Counted from the first letter of the stretch, positions 3,696 through 62,492 are shown. The stretch: 64,000 bases of DNA from Bacillota bacterium (GCA_030019365.1 JASEFA010000001.1:334953-398952); one strand, 5' to 3'. Notes: generated by a model from the sequence alone, not told the origin. Numbers and translations are program-made.

Positions 3696-4903
3696 ACGTG
3701 CACCCCCCGGGCAGCATAGTGAGCGTAGCGGGCCGGGTCTCGGGCACGGCGTTGCGCCCAGCGGTAGATGTCCAGGTGACGGCGGGCCACGCGATCCCAG
3801 GCGATGACTCCGGTCACGTACCTGCGGGCCGCCCGGGAAAGCCGGCGGCGCAGGCTGGCGTCCCGTATGAGGCGCACGATGGCCTGCTCCAGTTCCTCGT
3901 CATCGCGCACCAGGAGTCCGGCCCGGCTCGCCTCCACCGAGGACTTGAGCCCCTCAATGGCGGACACCACCACGGGCAGGCCCACCTGGTAGGCGTGGGC
4001 CAGGTTGCCGGATTGGGTGGCATACGTGTACGGCAACACCATCAGGTCGAAGGCGGACAGGATGGCCAGGTAGCGGTCGGGCGAGAAGGTGCCCAGCACC
4101 ACCCGGATGGATTGGGCGGCGGGTGACTCTCGGGCCAGGGAGAGGTAGTCCTGCCGCACCCGGGGGCCCGCCGGGCTGCCCGGGCGCGCCTCCCCTGCCA
4201 GGACCAGCACTGCCCCGGGACACTCTCTGCTGACGTGGGGCCACAGGCGCAGCACACGGTCGAATCCTTTGTTGGGCTCCAACCAGCCCATCATCCCCAC
4301 CGCTACGGCTCTCTCCCCCACCCCGATCTCGTGCCGCACCTGCCGGCGGGCCGGGGCCGGAGGACGCTCCCGCCCGGCGCCGTGGGGGACCACGAACACG
4401 TTGTCGGGCACCCGCCCCAGGTTGTAGGGAAGGTGAGTCTTCTGGATGGGCTCGTGCACGATGTTGGCTGCCGCCAGGGACATCATGTGGTCGTAGTAAA
4501 CGGCCTCCGGGTGAGTGAGGTGGGTGAACACCGAGTGGTAGGTGACCACCACCGGGCGGCGCCTGATCTGCCAGCGGAACAGGGGCACGGCCAGACGGAA
4601 GGCATCCTCGGGGGCGAAGCTGAACTCGCCGGTGGGCAGGGGCGTGGCGAAGAGCCCGAATTCGTGCTGGATGTGTACCACGTCCGGGTCGAGCCTTTCC
4701 ACGGCCTGCTCCAGCCTCTCGGGCCAGCCGGGGTCGGCCTGGTCTATGACCGCCTTCACGCCCCCGATGGCGGCATCGGTGTGGGCCACGAGGGAAACGC
4801 GCATGCCGGCGCGTTGGAGGGCAGCGCACAGCTCGGCCGCATAGATGGCGATACCGCACCAGCGCGGCGCCCACGATGTGACCATGGCCACGTGCAGCGC
4901 CAT
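3692..4903 (-). CDS. glycosyltransferase family 4 (GT1/GT4-like)
   Basis: 403 aa. N-terminal 'VAMVTSW…CGIAIYAAEL' and C-terminal 'E…GLPVV' retaining-GT-B motifs. First gene of an apparent GT–oxidoreductase–desulfurase-like–SDR operon. Confidence 0.7.
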   Translation of the reverse strand: MALHVAMVTSWAPRWCGIAIYAAELCAALQRAGMRVSLVAHTDAAIGGVKAVIDQADPGWPERLEQAVERLDPDVVHIQHEFGLFATPLPTGEFSFAPEDAFRLAVPLFRWQIRRRPVVVTYHSVFTHLTHPEAVYYDHMMSLAAANIVHEPIQKTHLPYNLGRVPDNVFVVPHGAGRERPPAPARRQVRHEIGVGERAVAVGMMGWLEPNKGFDRVLRLWPHVSRECPGAVLVLAGEARPGSPAGPRVRQDYLSLARESPAAQSIRVVLGTFSPDRYLAILSAFDLMVLPYTYATQSGNLAHAYQVGLPVVVSAIEGLKSSVEASRAGLLVRDDEELEQAIVRLIRDASLRRRLSRAARRYVTGVIAWDRVARRHLDIYRWAQRRARDPARYAHYAARGVHV

Positions 4904-4959
4904 CCCCTGCTCCCTCCCGTGGTCCCACCTGCCCGGCCGTACCGGAATCCTGCCGCGGC

Positions 4960-5003
4960 CCCTACGGGAAGCTTACCCTGGTCCCTACGGAAGCTTACCT
5001 TGG
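4960..5003. repeat. tandem direct repeat (2 × ~22 bp, each with an AAGCTT-centred near-palindrome) in a promoter region
   Basis: 'ccctacgggaagcttaccctgg' followed by 'ccctacggaagcttaccttgg' lies directly upstream of the glycosyltransferase start (4903, minus). It is an operator-like architecture. Confidence 0.5.
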
Positions 5004-5045
5004 CCCCTGCCGCCCTCATGCGTTCCTGGCCGCTTCGGGACGGGG

Positions 5046-8644: not shown

Positions 8645-9451
8645 TTGCGACCATCCGCGGGCGGGAATGGACTGCGTCCTGTTGCCTTCCTCCTTCAGGA
8701 GTTGCTCAAAACGCACACCTGGCAGCAGGTGGCGCTGGGCGCGTCATTATGCCAGGTATTTGACTTGATGCCACACGGCGGGGGACCATGCGTCTACCTG
8801 AAGGTATCAGGCCCCACGTCCGGGTGCCAAGTCAGGCGGGAACGAGACCGGTTGGTGTGGCTGCGGGGCAGGATCCCCATCCCCGAGGTGCTGGGATACG
8901 TGGAGTATGCCGGGCGGCAGTATCTGCTTACCACCGGGATTGCGGGCGTGCCCGCCTCTGACCCCTCCCTGGGAGGCAACCTGCCCCGGTTGGTGTCGCT
9001 CCTGGCTGAGGGACTGAAGCTGATCCACGCAGTGCCGTTCGAGCATTGCCCTTTTGACGCCAGGTTGGAGGTGGAGGTGGTCCGGGCGCACGGACGGATG
9101 GTCGCCGGCCTGGCGGATGAGGAGGATTTCGACCCGGTTCGTAAGGGCAAGACCGCCCGAGAGCTGTATGACATGCTCATCGAGACCCGGCCCGCCCGCG
9201 AAGACCTGGTGTTCACCCACGGTGACTACTGCCTGCCCAACGTGATCATCAACGACGGTGAGATCAGCGGCTTCGTCGACCTGGGCAGTGCCGGAGTCGG
9301 GGACCGCTACCGGGATCTTGCGCTGGCCGCCAGAAGCATCGGGGGGAACCTGGGCCTCCGTTGGGTCAGACCCTTCTTCCAGGCGTATGGCATCCACGAC
9401 CCGGACTGGGCCAGGGTAGAGTTCTATCAGCTGCTGGACGAGTTCTTTTGA
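8645..9451 (+). CDS. aminoglycoside 3'-phosphotransferase, APH(3') family
   Basis: 268 aa, apparently co-linear over its length with NptII-type APH(3'). Shared motifs are 'VFTHGDYCLPNVI', 'GFVDLGSAGVGDRYRDLALAARS' and the C-terminal 'FYQLLDEFF'. TTG start at 8645. Confidence 0.85.
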   Translation: MRPSAGGNGLRPVAFLLQELLKTHTWQQVALGASLCQVFDLMPHGGGPCVYLKVSGPTSGCQVRRERDRLVWLRGRIPIPEVLGYVEYAGRQYLLTTGIAGVPASDPSLGGNLPRLVSLLAEGLKLIHAVPFEHCPFDARLEVEVVRAHGRMVAGLADEEDFDPVRKGKTARELYDMLIETRPAREDLVFTHGDYCLPNVIINDGEISGFVDLGSAGVGDRYRDLALAARSIGGNLGLRWVRPFFQAYGIHDPDWARVEFYQLLDEFF

Positions 9452-10291
9452 TCAGGGAAGCCTCTTGCCCACCAGGGGGGCCAGCCGACGCACATCGTGC
9501 ATGAGCGCGGCAAAGTCGAGGGGGCCGAGGGATTGAGGCCCTTCGCACAGGGCGCGGTGGGGATCGGGGTGAACCCTGACCATGAGGCCGTTGGTGCCGG
9601 CGGCCACCGCCGCGCGGGCCATGGCACAGATGAGGTCAGGGGAGCCCGGGTGGCAGCAGGGATCGGTGACCACGGGCAGGTGGCTCAACTGCCTCACCAG
9701 GGCCACTGCCGCCAGGTCAAGGGTCGTCCCTGCAGCGGTGTCAAAGGTGCGGATACCTTTCTCACAGAGGACTACCTGCGGGTTGCCCGCATCCAGGATG
9801 CACTGTGCGGCCAGCAGCCATTCCTCGATGGTGGCAGCCGGTCCCTTCTCGAGGAACACCGGCCTGCGCCCCAGTCCGACCTCCCTGAGCAGGGGGATGT
9901 TTTGCATGTCCCGTGCGGCGATCCCGAGCCCATCTGCGTACTCGAGCACCAGGCCCACGTCGCGGGGATCACCGACCTCCGTCAGAACCGGGATACCTGC
10001 CTCATCGCCCGCGTCCCGGAGCATCCTCAGGGCGTTCACTCCCAGGCCCTGGAACTCATGTGGAGAGGCCTTTGACGGGAAGACGCCTGCTTTCAGTATC
10101 GCTCCCCCCAGCCTCTTGACCACACGCGCGGCCGCTCTGATCTGCTCCTGGCTTTCCACGGTGGCCGGCCCGGCGATTACCACCAGGTGGTGGGACCCGA
10201 TGGGGACGCCGCCCACGTGAACCACAGTCTCTTCGCCGGCTTCTACGCGCCTGACTCCGCCCGGGGCCTTGACCTCTAGCATCTGTACCAC
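9452..10291 (-). CDS. aroF: 3-deoxy-7-phosphoheptulonate (DAHP) synthase, AroF/KDO8PS-like class
   Basis: 279 aa with 'LVVIAGPATVES' and the DAHP-synthase I-beta fold. GGGGGAG SD 9 nt upstream of the ATG. Preceded by a T-box leader. Confidence 0.9.
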   Translation of the reverse strand: MVQMLEVKAPGGVRRVEAGEETVVHVGGVPIGSHHLVVIAGPATVESQEQIRAAARVVKRLGGAILKAGVFPSKASPHEFQGLGVNALRMLRDAGDEAGIPVLTEVGDPRDVGLVLEYADGLGIAARDMQNIPLLREVGLGRRPVFLEKGPAATIEEWLLAAQCILDAGNPQVVLCEKGIRTFDTAAGTTLDLAAVALVRQLSHLPVVTDPCCHPGSPDLICAMARAAVAAGTNGLMVRVHPDPHRALCEGPQSLGPLDFAALMHDVRRLAPLVGKRLP

Positions 10292-10420
10292 TCCCCCTTC
10301 TCCCAGAGGTGCCTCGCGCCCTCCGCCCCTGGCACCGGCGGTCCCCTTCCGCCCTCGCCTGCGGCGGTCACCCTCTCGCCGCGCCAGTGACGACTGCCGC
10401 TACAGGCGGCGCGGCGGACG

Positions 10421-10451
10421 CAAAAAGCCCCGTCCCGGCAAGGGACGGGGC
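10421..10451 (-). terminator. intrinsic terminator of the T-box leader
   Basis: Hairpin GCCCCGTCCC–GGCAAG–GGGACGGGGC followed by UUUUU on the minus strand, ~130 nt upstream of the aroF start. Confidence 0.6.
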
Positions 10452-10805
10452 TCTCACTCCCGCGGTACCACCCTGATTGCTTCCGGCGCGCCGGGCTGGC
10501 GACAGCCGGATGCCACTCCGTTCGAGTACGGGACCGGCGACGCCGATCCGTATACCCGCTTCCGTGCTAACGGTGGAAGGTCCGTCTGCGCCTACTCGGC
10601 CCGGGGTTACCGGCCGGTCCGTCCGCAGGTCGCCGGCCGGCCATCCGGCCTCCGGTACCGTTCAGGCAGCCGCTCCCGGGAGAACTTCACGTCGCCTGGA
10701 GTCGCCCGGCTTCCACCGTCCCCGGCTCGCTAGAAACCCGACGGCGAGCTACTTTTCCCGTTCATGGCGTTTACGGGGGTATGCCTGCCTTCCCCCGTAT
10801 GATTT
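10421..10805 (-). promoter_or_regulatory. T-box riboswitch leader (tRNA-sensing) controlling aroF
   Basis: Minus strand carries the canonical T-box sequence 'AAUCAGGGUGGUACCGCGGGAG' (plus 10459–10480). It is immediately followed by a GC hairpin and a U-tract. The leader 5' end has the GA-motif region. Specifier not resolved (possibly Tyr UAC/UAU). Confidence 0.65.
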
Positions 10806-10811
10806 TGGGCT

Positions 10812-10841
10812 AATCTACCACGGGCGGTCCGGTACAGTCAA
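10812..10841 (-). promoter_or_regulatory. sigma-A-like promoter for the T-box/aroF transcript
   Basis: Minus strand has TTGACT (-35), an 18-nt spacer and TAGATT (-10). The predicted TSS lies just before the first leader hairpin. Confidence 0.35.
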
Positions 10842-10959
10842 TGGATAGGGATGCCAGTGCTCGCCCCGCGGGCGCATGGCGGGAGCGGAAACCGCGAAAC
10901 CTATGCATCGACCGGTGGGAGGCCGAAAGCCCCTGGTGCGCAATCGGAGGTGTTGACCG

Positions 10960-11472
10960 GTGGCGAAAGACAAGTCCCAAAACATAGACCTGTTGCGGCA
11001 GAGCCTGGGCCCCATCCCCTCCCCCGGCAGTGCCCAGACGCCGGCGGGGTATCTCACCCAGGCCGTCACCACCATGCAGAACATCCTGCGGCAGGAGCAG
11101 TTCACCTCGGAGCAGGAACTGCAGAGCAGCCTGACCCAGTCTTCCACGAAGGTGTCGCAGTCCCAGCGTCTGGACCAGATGCTGGCCCTGGCCAACCAAC
11201 TGGTGCAGACGGCCCAGGGGGGAGCCGACGCCGTGCGCCAGAACCTGCCCCACTTCCAGCAAGCCCTGCAGGAATTGAAGACGCAGATCGCCGACGAGGA
11301 AACCCAGATCGGCACCCAGGTTTCCCAGGCGTTGCAGCAGGCGGTGTCCAGCCTGGCGCAGGCCCACGCTGCCATGGTGCAGGGCCAGTCATTCCGCGAC
11401 CTCAACCGCCTGGTGGCGGAAGCCGAGCACCTGGTGGGCCAGATTCAGAAGCCCACGGACGTGGTCTCCTGA
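10960..11472 (+). CDS. hypothetical Gln-rich coiled-coil protein
   Basis: 170 aa with natural composition (Q/L/A/S/T) and a heptad-like 'QxLxxL' periodicity. The opposite-strand ORF here is P/G/R-rich and judged spurious. No homolog recognised. Confidence 0.5.
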   Translation: MAKDKSQNIDLLRQSLGPIPSPGSAQTPAGYLTQAVTTMQNILRQEQFTSEQELQSSLTQSSTKVSQSQRLDQMLALANQLVQTAQGGADAVRQNLPHFQQALQELKTQIADEETQIGTQVSQALQQAVSSLAQAHAAMVQGQSFRDLNRLVAEAEHLVGQIQKPTDVVS

Positions 11473-11611
11473 TACTCCCGTGACGTTCCCACTCGCCTGC
11501 AGGAAAACCGTCGCTCGGGGTCGAAGCTAGGCCTAAACGAAAACGGCGATGGGGCTCGCCATATGTTGTGGTCCGCAACTGATGGCTCCTGGCTGACAGG
11601 CCGGGAGCCAT

Positions 11612-12325
11612 TTGCATCAGAGGAGGTGTGGGGTCCTGCTTTCTGTAGAGTTGCTTCCCCAGGTCTCCGCCTGGGTCACGGAGTTGACGCTCCCTCAGCT
11701 GCACGCTGCCCTTCAACAGGGGGCTGCGTACCTGCTGGGTCGCGACACGTTTGCCCAGGAAAGTGATCTGTGCGATTACATCGAAAGCCTGGCGGAGCTC
11801 TCGGCTCTTGCCGCCCAGGCCTTCCGTCTGGAAAGGGAACAACGGGAGCTGGAGGCGGAGGAACGGGAGCTCAAGCAAGAGGCAAATGCGCTGGCCGCCG
11901 GGCGGGTGAAGGATTGGGGCGGGCGCGTTGGGTTCCAAAGAGCGGACACAGAAAGACCCGAGGCCCGTTCGGGTTCTACACCGCGCCTGGTCGCCACCGC
12001 TGTGCCCCTCCCCGCTTCCGGGGGCGAGGGGGCAGATGCCGGCGGGGATCTGGCGGGCCGGCTGGGCAAGCTGGCGGCTGAGAAGGGATGGGATGAGGCT
12101 GCCGCAGTACGCAGCGCCCTCACGTGTGCCTTCGCCCTGGCACGGGTAAGCGTCGCTGACCGGGAGGAGTTGGCGAAGGAGAGCAAGCTGTTCGGCCGGC
12201 AGTGCGCAGTGCTCCGCTACCGCATCTGGGTTCTGCTGCAGGACAACCGCATCATCCGCATGCACCTGGCGGGACTGAGAGCGCGCGTGGCCCGCCTCCA
12301 GGCCATGGACTACGACGTTCGCTGA
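11612..12325 (+). CDS. hypothetical protein (charged coiled-coil segment 'REQRELEAEERELKQEA')
   Basis: 237-aa ORF preceded by an AGAGGAGGTG SD. The true start may be a CTG/TTG a few codons in. No recognisable family. Confidence 0.45.
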   Translation: MHQRRCGVLLSVELLPQVSAWVTELTLPQLHAALQQGAAYLLGRDTFAQESDLCDYIESLAELSALAAQAFRLEREQRELEAEERELKQEANALAAGRVKDWGGRVGFQRADTERPEARSGSTPRLVATAVPLPASGGEGADAGGDLAGRLGKLAAEKGWDEAAAVRSALTCAFALARVSVADREELAKESKLFGRQCAVLRYRIWVLLQDNRIIRMHLAGLRARVARLQAMDYDVR

Positions 12326-12398
12326 CCGTGGGCCGCGACTCTGCTCCGGGCGTAAGGGATTGCTGGCCGGGTCGTTGCGAGTGCCCGGCGCTGGCCGG

Positions 12399-13283
12399 TT
12401 AGCACCGGCCGATGTGCCTTATCGCTCCGCGCAGGGCCTGTCTCCAGAGTTCGATGTGCGCAACCTGGAACGGGCCGGGCGGCACCTGCGTCATCCAGCT
12501 CTTGATCTCCCTGGCGGCGATGACGACCGCGTCCCTGTACAGGTCCTGGCGGTCCCACCGGCTGGCGAGGCTCTCGAGCAGTTCGATTCGCTCGACGGGT
12601 GGGCGCGAGAAAAGCAGAAACAGGGCGGGGTCGTAGGAAGGGGGGCGCAACGACGCATATTCCCAGTCCACCAGCCAGTAGCTCCCACCCCGGTCGAGCA
12701 GGATATTGGCCGGCAACAGGTCCCCGTGGCTCAAGACGAGTTTGGCTGCGGTGGTCCAGGACCGCGAGGCGTCCTCGAGAAACGAGAGCGTGTCGGATTC
12801 CAGTTCGCGAGCGATCACGGGCAGGTACTTCCCCAATCTGCTTCCGCGCTCATATTCCGGGCGGAGGCTGCCAGGCGGGTCCACATTCTGCAGGTGCAGC
12901 ACGTCCTCCAGGATGGCGTCGACCTGCGCGCCCTCGCGGAGGCGGAAGGCGTTACGCTTTTCCGCCAGCGGTACCGCGTCCAGGCGGTCGAACAGGAGGA
13001 TCACCAGGTCGTCCGAAACGTAATGGCCGCGCAGGGCCGGCACCCGCACGGGCAGGCCTGGACACGTCTGCAGGAAGCGGAGTTCGTGGCGCAACGCGCT
13101 GAGGCCGTGTGGGTCCCCCCGGGTGCGGGCCTTCACGAACCAGCGGGCCGAGGGGATGGCCACCCGGGCACTGTGCGCGAGCAGGTCGACCAGCCGGTCT
13201 ACTTCCTCCGGGCCGAGGAAGGGCTCCAGCGCCGCGAGCAAGGGTTCCATCACCTGCCGCCTGCCGGCGCCACCCGGCCTCAT
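12399..13283 (-). CDS. APH/ChoK-family phosphotransferase (CotS/bacterial-spore-kinase-like)
   Basis: Kinase Brenner-like motif 'LSHGDLLPANILL' and 'WLVDWEYA'. Start set to the ATG at 13283, which has a GGAGGAG SD 5 nt upstream, not the R/G-rich ORF extension to 13436. Confidence 0.7.
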   Translation of the reverse strand: MRPGGAGRRQVMEPLLAALEPFLGPEEVDRLVDLLAHSARVAIPSARWFVKARTRGDPHGLSALRHELRFLQTCPGLPVRVPALRGHYVSDDLVILLFDRLDAVPLAEKRNAFRLREGAQVDAILEDVLHLQNVDPPGSLRPEYERGSRLGKYLPVIARELESDTLSFLEDASRSWTTAAKLVLSHGDLLPANILLDRGGSYWLVDWEYASLRPPSYDPALFLLFSRPPVERIELLESLASRWDRQDLYRDAVVIAAREIKSWMTQVPPGPFQVAHIELWRQALRGAIRHIGRC

Positions 13284-13516
13284 CCTTGCTCCTCCTGCAG
13301 TTGGGAAGCGGAAAGGTGGTAGAACTCGCCCCGTCGCCGCAGCAGGACATCGGCGGTGCCGGTTTCCACCGCGGCGCGACGCACCACCCCCACGTCGACT
13401 ATGGCTCCGGTCACCTCCCCACCCGAGACCAGTCAATCGCCAGGATCAGCGCTACGCGGCGGTGCAATGTGCAGTGCAGCCGCGTGACCCACGCGCGGTA
13501 GCCGGCCGAAGCGCAG

Positions 13517-26562: not shown

Positions 26563-26639
<77 letters not shown>

Positions 26640-62294: not shown

Positions 62295-62492
62295 CCTTGC
62301 TCCCCTGGCGTGAGATAGCGCTCCACCGGGGAGCAGGGGTCTCCACCGGTGACAGTGCTGCACCTATTCGGTGCAACCCCAGCCGCAGGAGGCGGCCTCC
62401 CTGCAGCTTCGGCGACGACCCCTTTCCCGGCGGCTCACGGCCTGCCCGGCTCCCCGCCGGTACTGATGGTCATCGCGCCTCTACCCCACCTC
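62295..62492 (-). promoter_or_regulatory. lysine riboswitch (L-box) in the lysA leader
   Basis: Minus strand contains the L-box conserved blocks 'GUAGAGGCGCGAUGACC', 'GUCGUCGCCGAAGC', 'GCACUGUCACCGG' and 'GGUGGAGCGCUAUCUCACGCC'. A downstream hairpin can pair CCUCC with the lysA SD. Confidence 0.6.

Follow-up and report, generated by a model that had tools for sequence, protein, structure and literature searches.

A T-box riboswitch had been predicted upstream of a DAHP synthase gene (aroF) on the minus strand of a 64-kb stretch of DNA from a Bacillota bacterium, referred to here as the window. The prediction raises the question of whether the locus carries a genuine T-box and, if so, which tRNA the RNA reads. 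The elements on which the original prediction rested, a T-box block, a GC hairpin and a run of five U residues ahead of aroF, are all present on the minus strand and can be read from the sequence. The analysis confirmed that the T-box leader upstream of the DAHP synthase gene is real, complete and encoded on the minus strand. As had been proposed, promoter, antiterminator and terminator precede the gene, as evidenced by a match to the Rfam T-box family RF00230 (E 7e-14), by the folds of the RNA and by a promoter found in five loci. The analysis itself shows the modules of the leader, their covariation, the mutually exclusive folds, the conservation of the promoter and the genes around it.

The regulated gene (9452–10282, minus strand) encodes a type I-beta DAHP synthase of 276 residues that consists of the catalytic core only. 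The ORF, which runs from 10282 to 9452, matches PF00793 (E 1e-53), TIGR01361 (287.1 bits, cutoff 267.75) and NF006421, and its ATG is preceded by a GGGGGAG Shine-Dalgarno sequence. The next gene, which encodes an APH-family phosphotransferase (8645–9451, plus strand), runs towards the DAHP synthase gene from the opposite strand, and the leader therefore controls a single gene. The same convergent arrangement is observed at loci L091 and L094. L094 encodes an identical protein, and its gene calls leave a 677-nt region without genes upstream of the DAHP synthase gene. Two minus-strand ORFs of the window, 10815–11405 and 11402–12265, match no family and are probably spurious; the true upstream neighbour is a divergent plus-strand ORF (10960–11472) that is called as a gene in L094.

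Eleven homologous leaders were identified upstream of DAHP synthase genes by protein-guided searches (L001, L006, L046, L091–L093 and L095–L099). L094 was left out of this count, as it repeats the window's own locus. The encoded enzymes are 85% (L001, a Bacillota MAG), 82% (L091), 55–61% (L046, L092 and L093) and 51% (L006) identical to the window enzyme. L095, L096 and L097 are related to L006; L098 carries the gene for a protein of Zhaonella formicivorans, and L099 is from Moorella sp. Hama-1. The T-box core was not found at most other sampled DAHP synthase loci, many of which are from other phyla. A metagenome scan with the window protein found no close relatives and added only one leader, L046.

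In L006 (2809–4675), L095, L096 and L097, the homologous T-box heads a two-gene aroF-pheA operon. The second gene of L006 encodes a prephenate dehydratase (NF008865, 277.7 bits, cutoff 219; PF00800, E 9e-61), and its counterparts in L095–L097 feature PDT and ACT domains. Prephenate dehydratase commits the pathway to phenylalanine. In L095–L097 the genes around the operon, prs-rplY(L25)-pth, are conserved, and mfd is located downstream in L095 and L096.

The TTGACT-18-TAGATT promoter of the original prediction maps to 10841–10812 on the minus strand, and additionally features a TG extension. Its -35 hexamer, TTGACT, is found at 10836–10841, and its extended -10 element, TGG-TAGATT, at 10812–10820, TG preceding the -10 hexamer. 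This is the sole promoter-like site detected by the promoter scan between 9400 and 11500, where shuffled sequences are expected to yield 0.1. The pattern TTGAC(T/G)-18-TGnTAnAnT is common to the window, L001, L091, L046 and L093, and the flanking sequences have diverged. The latter four loci retain TTGAC(T/G), the 18-nt spacing and a -10 consensus of TGnTA(G/C)A(T/G)T. As deduced from spacing, transcription most likely starts near 10805, about 7 nt past the -10 element. The leader spans about 520 nt from the promoter to the DAHP synthase gene.

The last part of this leader, from the terminator to the start codon, is a transcribed GC-rich spacer of 139 nt (10283–10421, minus strand) that contains two tandem 26-nt units (10370–10319) and the Shine-Dalgarno sequence. 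It is poorly conserved relative to L001. At the mRNA level, each of the two 26-nt units (10319–10370) could fold into a CCGCC...GGCGG hairpin. Tandem repeats also occur in the corresponding spacer of L092, which features about seven copies of the 12-nt unit GCAGGGTACCGT (L092 341–424), and two to three copies of a similar unit are present in the spacers of L046 and L093.

The expected match to the T-box covariance model was obtained in part. At the curated cutoff the element is missed: a default Rfam scan of the whole window reported no T-box, as the RF00230 gathering score is 93 bits. With permissive filters and an E-value threshold, a full-length match (model positions 1–219) is found at 10774–10438 on the minus strand, with a score of 65.5 bits and an E-value of 7.2e-14 (local) or 5.7e-12 (whole window). 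The match is far above chance and statistically unambiguous, and it overrules the default-scan miss as a refutation of the T-box. The alignment contains two large insertions, one of 67 nt in distal Stem II and one of 39 nt between the Stem IIA/B pseudoknot and Stem III, which most likely account for the shortfall in score. The cutoff of 93 bits is also missed by the leader of L006 (92.3 bits), which lacks the Stem II expansion and falls narrowly short, and by a bona fide glyS T-box in L024 (72.8 bits). The L024 element (4824–5011, plus strand), found in a MAG of Herpetosiphonaceae (Chloroflexota), is a glycine-type T-box followed by an intrinsic terminator before a glycine-tRNA ligase gene, about 1 kb downstream of the L024 DAHP synthase gene.

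Other T-boxes were searched for as comparators within the 64-kb window, and none was found. Two further RNA elements were noted. A sub-threshold match to the fluoride riboswitch RF01734 (31.1 bits, gathering score 34; E 1.1e-4; model 1–64) lies at 11536–11598 on the plus strand; a GGCUCC...GGGAGCC hairpin and AUUUG come after it. Farther downstream, the plus-strand ORFs 11612–12325 and 12360–13322 have no Pfam match, and neither CrcB nor ClC-F was identified there. A lysine riboswitch aptamer (RF00168) is clearly recognizable at 62308–62491 on the minus strand (113.5 bits, E 1.7e-29).

The RF00230 alignment places Stem I at 10672–10768 (minus strand), comprising a K-turn, a specifier loop with an S-turn, an AG bulge and a distal loop. 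At the base of the stem, the K-turn reads GC-CAU-GA ... GA-GC. The S-turn is formed by AGUA (10753–10750) and GAA (10688–10686), and the codon lies close to the loop's 3' end; these features are aligned with high posterior probability. The AG bulge, AGCGA (10731–10727), and the distal loop, with GGUGGAA (10720–10710), align to AGAGA and UGGUGaaA of the model, the sequences that form the tRNA-elbow platform.

Stem II (10586–10669, minus strand) likewise features an S-turn, GAA (10663–10661) with AGUA (10596–10593), and carries the 67-nt GC-rich distal expansion. The expansion is common only to the window, L001 and L091, and is absent in L046, L092, L093 and L006. The Stem IIA/B pseudoknot follows at 10559–10584, where helix IIA is CGG/CCG, the loop CUUCC pairs with the downstream GGAAG, and the F-box reads CCGUUA. 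The elements CUUCC/GGAAG and CCGUUA are invariant in an alignment of seven leaders.

A hairpin specific to this class of leaders occupies 10524–10557 (minus strand), between the pseudoknot and Stem III, and corresponds to the 39 nt inserted relative to RF00230. All 12 aroF leaders possess it, whereas the glyS T-box of L024 does not. The sequences that close it, (R)GGUAUCGG...CC(C/U)GUACY, are near-invariant. In the window they read GGGUAU(A)CGG ... CCCGUAC, where the A is a 1-nt insertion in the otherwise invariant GGUAUCGG. The inner stem is variable and covaries (helix 12), and the hairpin contains a conserved internal C-C/C-U mismatch. In the Moorella leader, L099, a long insertion is located inside this hairpin.

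Downstream of the extra hairpin, the 5' part of the discriminator domain (10477–10518, minus strand) consists of GAGUG, corresponding to RRRxG, Stem III (10513–10479) and AA (10478–10477); Stem III is aligned by the covariance model. Together with helices A1 and A2 of the antiterminator, the UGGUACC bulge and the G10463-U10445 pair, it provides a complete discriminator. The diagnostic motifs of T-boxes (RRRxG-Stem III-AA, the terminal G-U pair of A2, the K-turn, the S-turns and the pseudoknot) have been defined previously (PMC7583486), and all of them are present in the window leader.

The folding suggested along with the original prediction recovered only some of these elements. Minimum free energy folding yielded the antiterminator and terminator alternatives, but did not reproduce the T-box architecture, either for the whole leader (z = -2.0) or for Stem I (z = 0.30, no better than shuffles). 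Single-sequence folding of an RNA with 69% GC is uninformative, and a comparative analysis was therefore used. A T-box structure specified by hand, including the K-turn stem, Stems I and II, IIA, the IIB pseudoknot, the extra hairpin and the antiterminator, was evaluated on the seven-leader alignment. In this structure, 93.3% of the cells are paired, compared with 41–49% when partners are slid by 1–3 columns, and 18 pairs show compensatory change, compared with 1–5 in the slid controls; none of 500 shuffles reached the observed values. A four-leader version of the test agrees with this result. Compensatory pairs occur in helices 2–6, including the helices that flank the specifier loop. Helices 9 and 10, which form the pseudoknot, are 100% paired yet invariant; they are consistent with the structure and provide no proof of covariation. 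Taken together, the comparison of the seven leaders supports the T-box fold in full.

The T-box block, AAUCAGGGUGGUACCGCGGGAG, is found at 10478–10457 on the minus strand. The antiterminator (10441–10474) was identified by folding and by comparison of the seven leaders. It consists of helix A1 (AGGG/CCCU), a 7-nt bulge (UGGUACC, 10470–10464) and helix A2 (GCGGG/CCCGU), which ends in the G10463-U10445 wobble pair. In the window it folds at -12.5 kcal/mol when the 3' arm of the terminator is omitted, and its pairs are conserved in the seven leaders. As most of these pairs never vary, they are consistent with the structure and uninformative on covariation.

The intrinsic terminator (10422–10451, minus strand) has the form GCCCCGUCCC-UUGCC-GGGACGGGGC (10451–10427), followed by five U residues (10426–10422). 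It is a 10-bp GC-rich stem, the inner part of which (10443–10428) was caught by the terminator scan, and it forms the core of the 3' region of the leader, which folds at -35.7 kcal/mol. The 5' arm of the terminator (10451–10442) contains the 3' strands of the antiterminator (10449–10441), and the two folds are consequently mutually exclusive. The competing antiterminator that the original prediction called for is thus available: in all four leaders tested, removal of the terminator's 3' arm yields an antiterminator with the UGGUACC bulge (-9 to -12.5 kcal/mol), and the full sequence yields a much more stable terminator that reuses the CCGUCCC strand (-18 to -36 kcal/mol). This is how T-boxes are classically arranged, with a weak antiterminator dependent on the tRNA to compete with a strong terminator.

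These data bear on whether the element is still functional. A decaying T-box, with termination or readthrough having become constitutive, would be in line with the sub-gathering score, with the large insertions, with a G-G mismatch in the distal Stem I helix of the window (alignment columns 147/167, where relatives have C-G or G-C) and with the A inserted in GGUAUCGG. Such a relic is nonetheless very improbable. All functional modules are intact, the nearest relatives, L001 and L091, share the insertions and keep all pairs, and the compensatory changes indicate continuing selection on the fold. Moreover, an intact strong terminator before an intact biosynthetic gene requires working antitermination, and a score below the Rfam cutoff is also found for L006 and for the glyS T-box of L024.

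Given a functional element, the identity of the tRNA depends on the specifier codon. In the specifier loop, the 3' strand reads GAA-G-UUC-U (10688–10681; GAAGUUCU in the window); it aligns without indels to the 8-nt loop of the model, so that UUC falls in the RF00230 codon columns. The triplet lies at 10682–10684 (minus strand), after GAA-G and before U10681, and GAAGUUC is invariant in the 12 leaders. On this alignment, the specifier is UUC (Phe) rather than UAC or UAU. The latter two, the tyrosine candidates of the original prediction, do not occur in the specifier loop.

Several observations favour specificity for phenylalanine. The frame of the codon columns is validated by the L024 control, in which the loop GAA-U-GGC-G occupies the same model columns and gives GGC (Gly) ahead of a gene that encodes glycine-tRNA ligase (NF003211, 602.7 bits, cutoff 312). 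The regulated genes are consistent with this reading: the window gene encodes DAHP synthase, and in four homologous operons the next gene encodes prephenate dehydratase, an enzyme of the Phe branch. Because homologous leaders drive aroF-pheA in L006, L095, L096 and L097, Phe is the favoured identity. The UGGU of the antiterminator bulge predicts A73 as the discriminator base, which bacterial tRNA-Phe generally has. UUC also dominates among the Phe specifiers in TBDB (99%), and GUU, the triplet that overlaps it in the loop, is rare for Val (8% of Val specifiers). No tRNA-Phe gene is found in the 64-kb window, the sole tRNA being a tRNA-Pro(GGG) at 26563–26639 on the minus strand.

A tyrosine specificity would have precedents at the first step of the pathway. 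In RegPrecise, aroA, which denotes DAHP synthase in B. subtilis nomenclature, appears among the targets of Tyr T-boxes for Bacillus cereus ATCC 14579 and Clostridium cellulolyticum H10 (PMC3766115 supplement), and UAU and UAC triplets do exist in the window leader. However, these triplets sit in the arms of the extra hairpin (GGGUAUACGG and CCCGUACUCG, 10557–10524), 3' of Stem II and the pseudoknot and hence outside the specifier loop, the 3' strand of which is invariant over GAAGUUC in the 12 leaders. We therefore give a Tyr specifier almost no credence, less than any other reading considered here.

The base that follows the codon is unusual. In canonical T-boxes, an unpaired purine is conserved 3' of the specifier codon (PMC2879506, PMC7583486); the window has U10681 at this position, and U or C is found in 12 of the 12 leaders. 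In the seven-leader alignment, the post-codon base covaries with the facing 5' base, the two forming A-U in six leaders and G-C in one. Across the wider set, the pair is A-U in the group of the window and in L098 and relatives, and G-C in L006, L095, L096 and L097. RNAalifold pairs the post-codon base with this 5' base, and in the window U10681 can pair with A10756. From this comparison, the post-codon pyrimidine is probably base-paired with A10756.

If the A10756-U10681 pair forms, the loop might instead be read as GAA-GUU-C, with GUU directly after GAA as in the glyQS-type layout, and the element would be a valine T-box. The covariation of the post-codon base with its 5' partner (A-U in six leaders, G-C in one, and further G-C cases), together with its pairing by RNAalifold, agrees with this frame. 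The UGGU bulge would suit it as well, as tRNA-Val has discriminator A73. In contrast, control of DAHP synthase and prephenate dehydratase by valine is metabolically senseless, and the equivalent frame applied to L024 glyS gives UGG (Trp), which is wrong, whereas the codon columns give GGC. The valine frame also leaves a pyrimidine in the post-codon position, and it relies on a triplet that makes up only 8% of the Val specifiers in TBDB, where U-ending specifiers with a matching host tRNA are rare (8.6%). A valine T-box thus appears highly unlikely. A search for homologous leaders with another codon found none, since all nine contigs sampled via the two protein searches carry UUC; natural variation therefore does not fix the codon frame, and the reading of UUC as a Phe specifier draws on the L024 control, the gene context and the TBDB frequencies.

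Considering the sequence evidence as a whole, the leader is very likely a functional transcriptional T-box that responds to tRNA-Phe and controls a monocistronic DAHP synthase gene. Binding of the tRNA, the response to its charging and the effect in vivo are here modelled on the established mechanism of the family. Transcription would begin about 7 nt past the TGG-TAGATT -10 element. Stem I would capture tRNA-Phe by pairing of the anticodon GAA with UUC (10684–10682), and the tRNA elbow would stack on the platform formed by the AG bulge and the distal loop, while the S-turn of Stem II and the IIA/B pseudoknot would brace the codon-anticodon duplex. With an uncharged tRNA, the 3' ACCA end would pair with UGGU (10470–10467) and stabilize the antiterminator (10474–10441), so that RNA polymerase would continue into the DAHP synthase gene. 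With a charged tRNA, the antiterminator would not be stabilized, the terminator (10451–10427 and the five U residues) would form, and transcription would stop. The entry step of aromatic amino acid synthesis would, in this organism, respond to the charging of tRNA-Phe.

The domain composition of the enzyme may give this control additional weight. The NF006421 match of the window DAHP synthase starts at position 76 of the 338 positions of the profile. The N-terminal ferredoxin-like domain, PF18152, is absent from the window enzyme and its nearest relatives (proteins P0001–P0005), and is carried by most homologues that are about 50% identical, including the T-box-controlled enzymes of L006 and L095–L099. 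As the window enzyme lacks the usual feedback-sensing domain, the riboswitch may be the main end-product control. Two more far-reaching readings, which we regard as unlikely, are that the T-box became the sole end-product control after loss of the allosteric domain, and that the extra hairpin is a dedicated module of the aroF/Phe class that, from its place where the decoding and discriminator domains meet at a hinge, might add a contact with tRNA-Phe or sense a second input. If the T-box were the sole end-product control, RNA-level feedback would have replaced protein-level feedback in the lineage of the window. A practical consequence concerns annotation, as T-boxes of high-GC Bacillota with large Stem II expansions are silently missed at the curated Rfam cutoff.

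Compared with the transcriptional class of RF00230, as represented by Bacillus subtilis tyrS and pheS, the window leader shares the K-turn, both S-turns, the AG bulge and distal loop, the pseudoknot with its F-box, the RRRxG-Stem III-AA arrangement, the UGGN bulge, the G-U pair of A2 and the overlapping terminator. It differs in that U10681, a pyrimidine probably paired with A10756, replaces the post-codon purine, and it adds the 67-nt Stem II expansion and the extra hairpin, with a score below gathering. The glyQS-type glycine T-box of L024 belongs to the same family, but it lacks both the Stem II domain and the extra hairpin and has the canonical post-codon purine. For the T-box family, Stem II lengths of 10–200 nt are on record, as are lineage-specific insertions in each of the domains (PMC7583486). 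As the family accommodates such insertions and DAHP synthase is a catalogued target, the general understanding of T-boxes is unchanged.

A T-box for tyrosine biosynthesis has been described in the B. cereus group by Wels et al. (PMC2494555). The window leader has in common with the Tyr-class aroA T-boxes the control of the entry enzyme of the aromatic pathway; by class listing, it differs from them in carrying UUC (Phe) and in being linked to pheA in relatives. In a table of 93 genomes (PMC3766115 supplement), neither aro genes nor pheA are listed with a T-box of the Phe class, and pheA gives 0 matches.

The closest counterparts are the leaders of L006 and L095–L099, which share with the window the specifier loop with GAAGUUC followed by a pyrimidine, the GGUAUCGG...CCYGUAC hairpin, the pseudoknot and the T-box core. 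All of them lack the 67-nt Stem II expansion. Their enzymes carry PF18152, whereas that of the window is core-only, and in four of them (L006 and L095–L097) the gene is co-transcribed with pheA, whereas the window gene is monocistronic. T-boxes of this class are present in many Bacillota, and the window leader adds little that is new; a Phe-class aroF leader occurring in cultured genera such as Moorella and Zhaonella is very probably already included in T-box databases.
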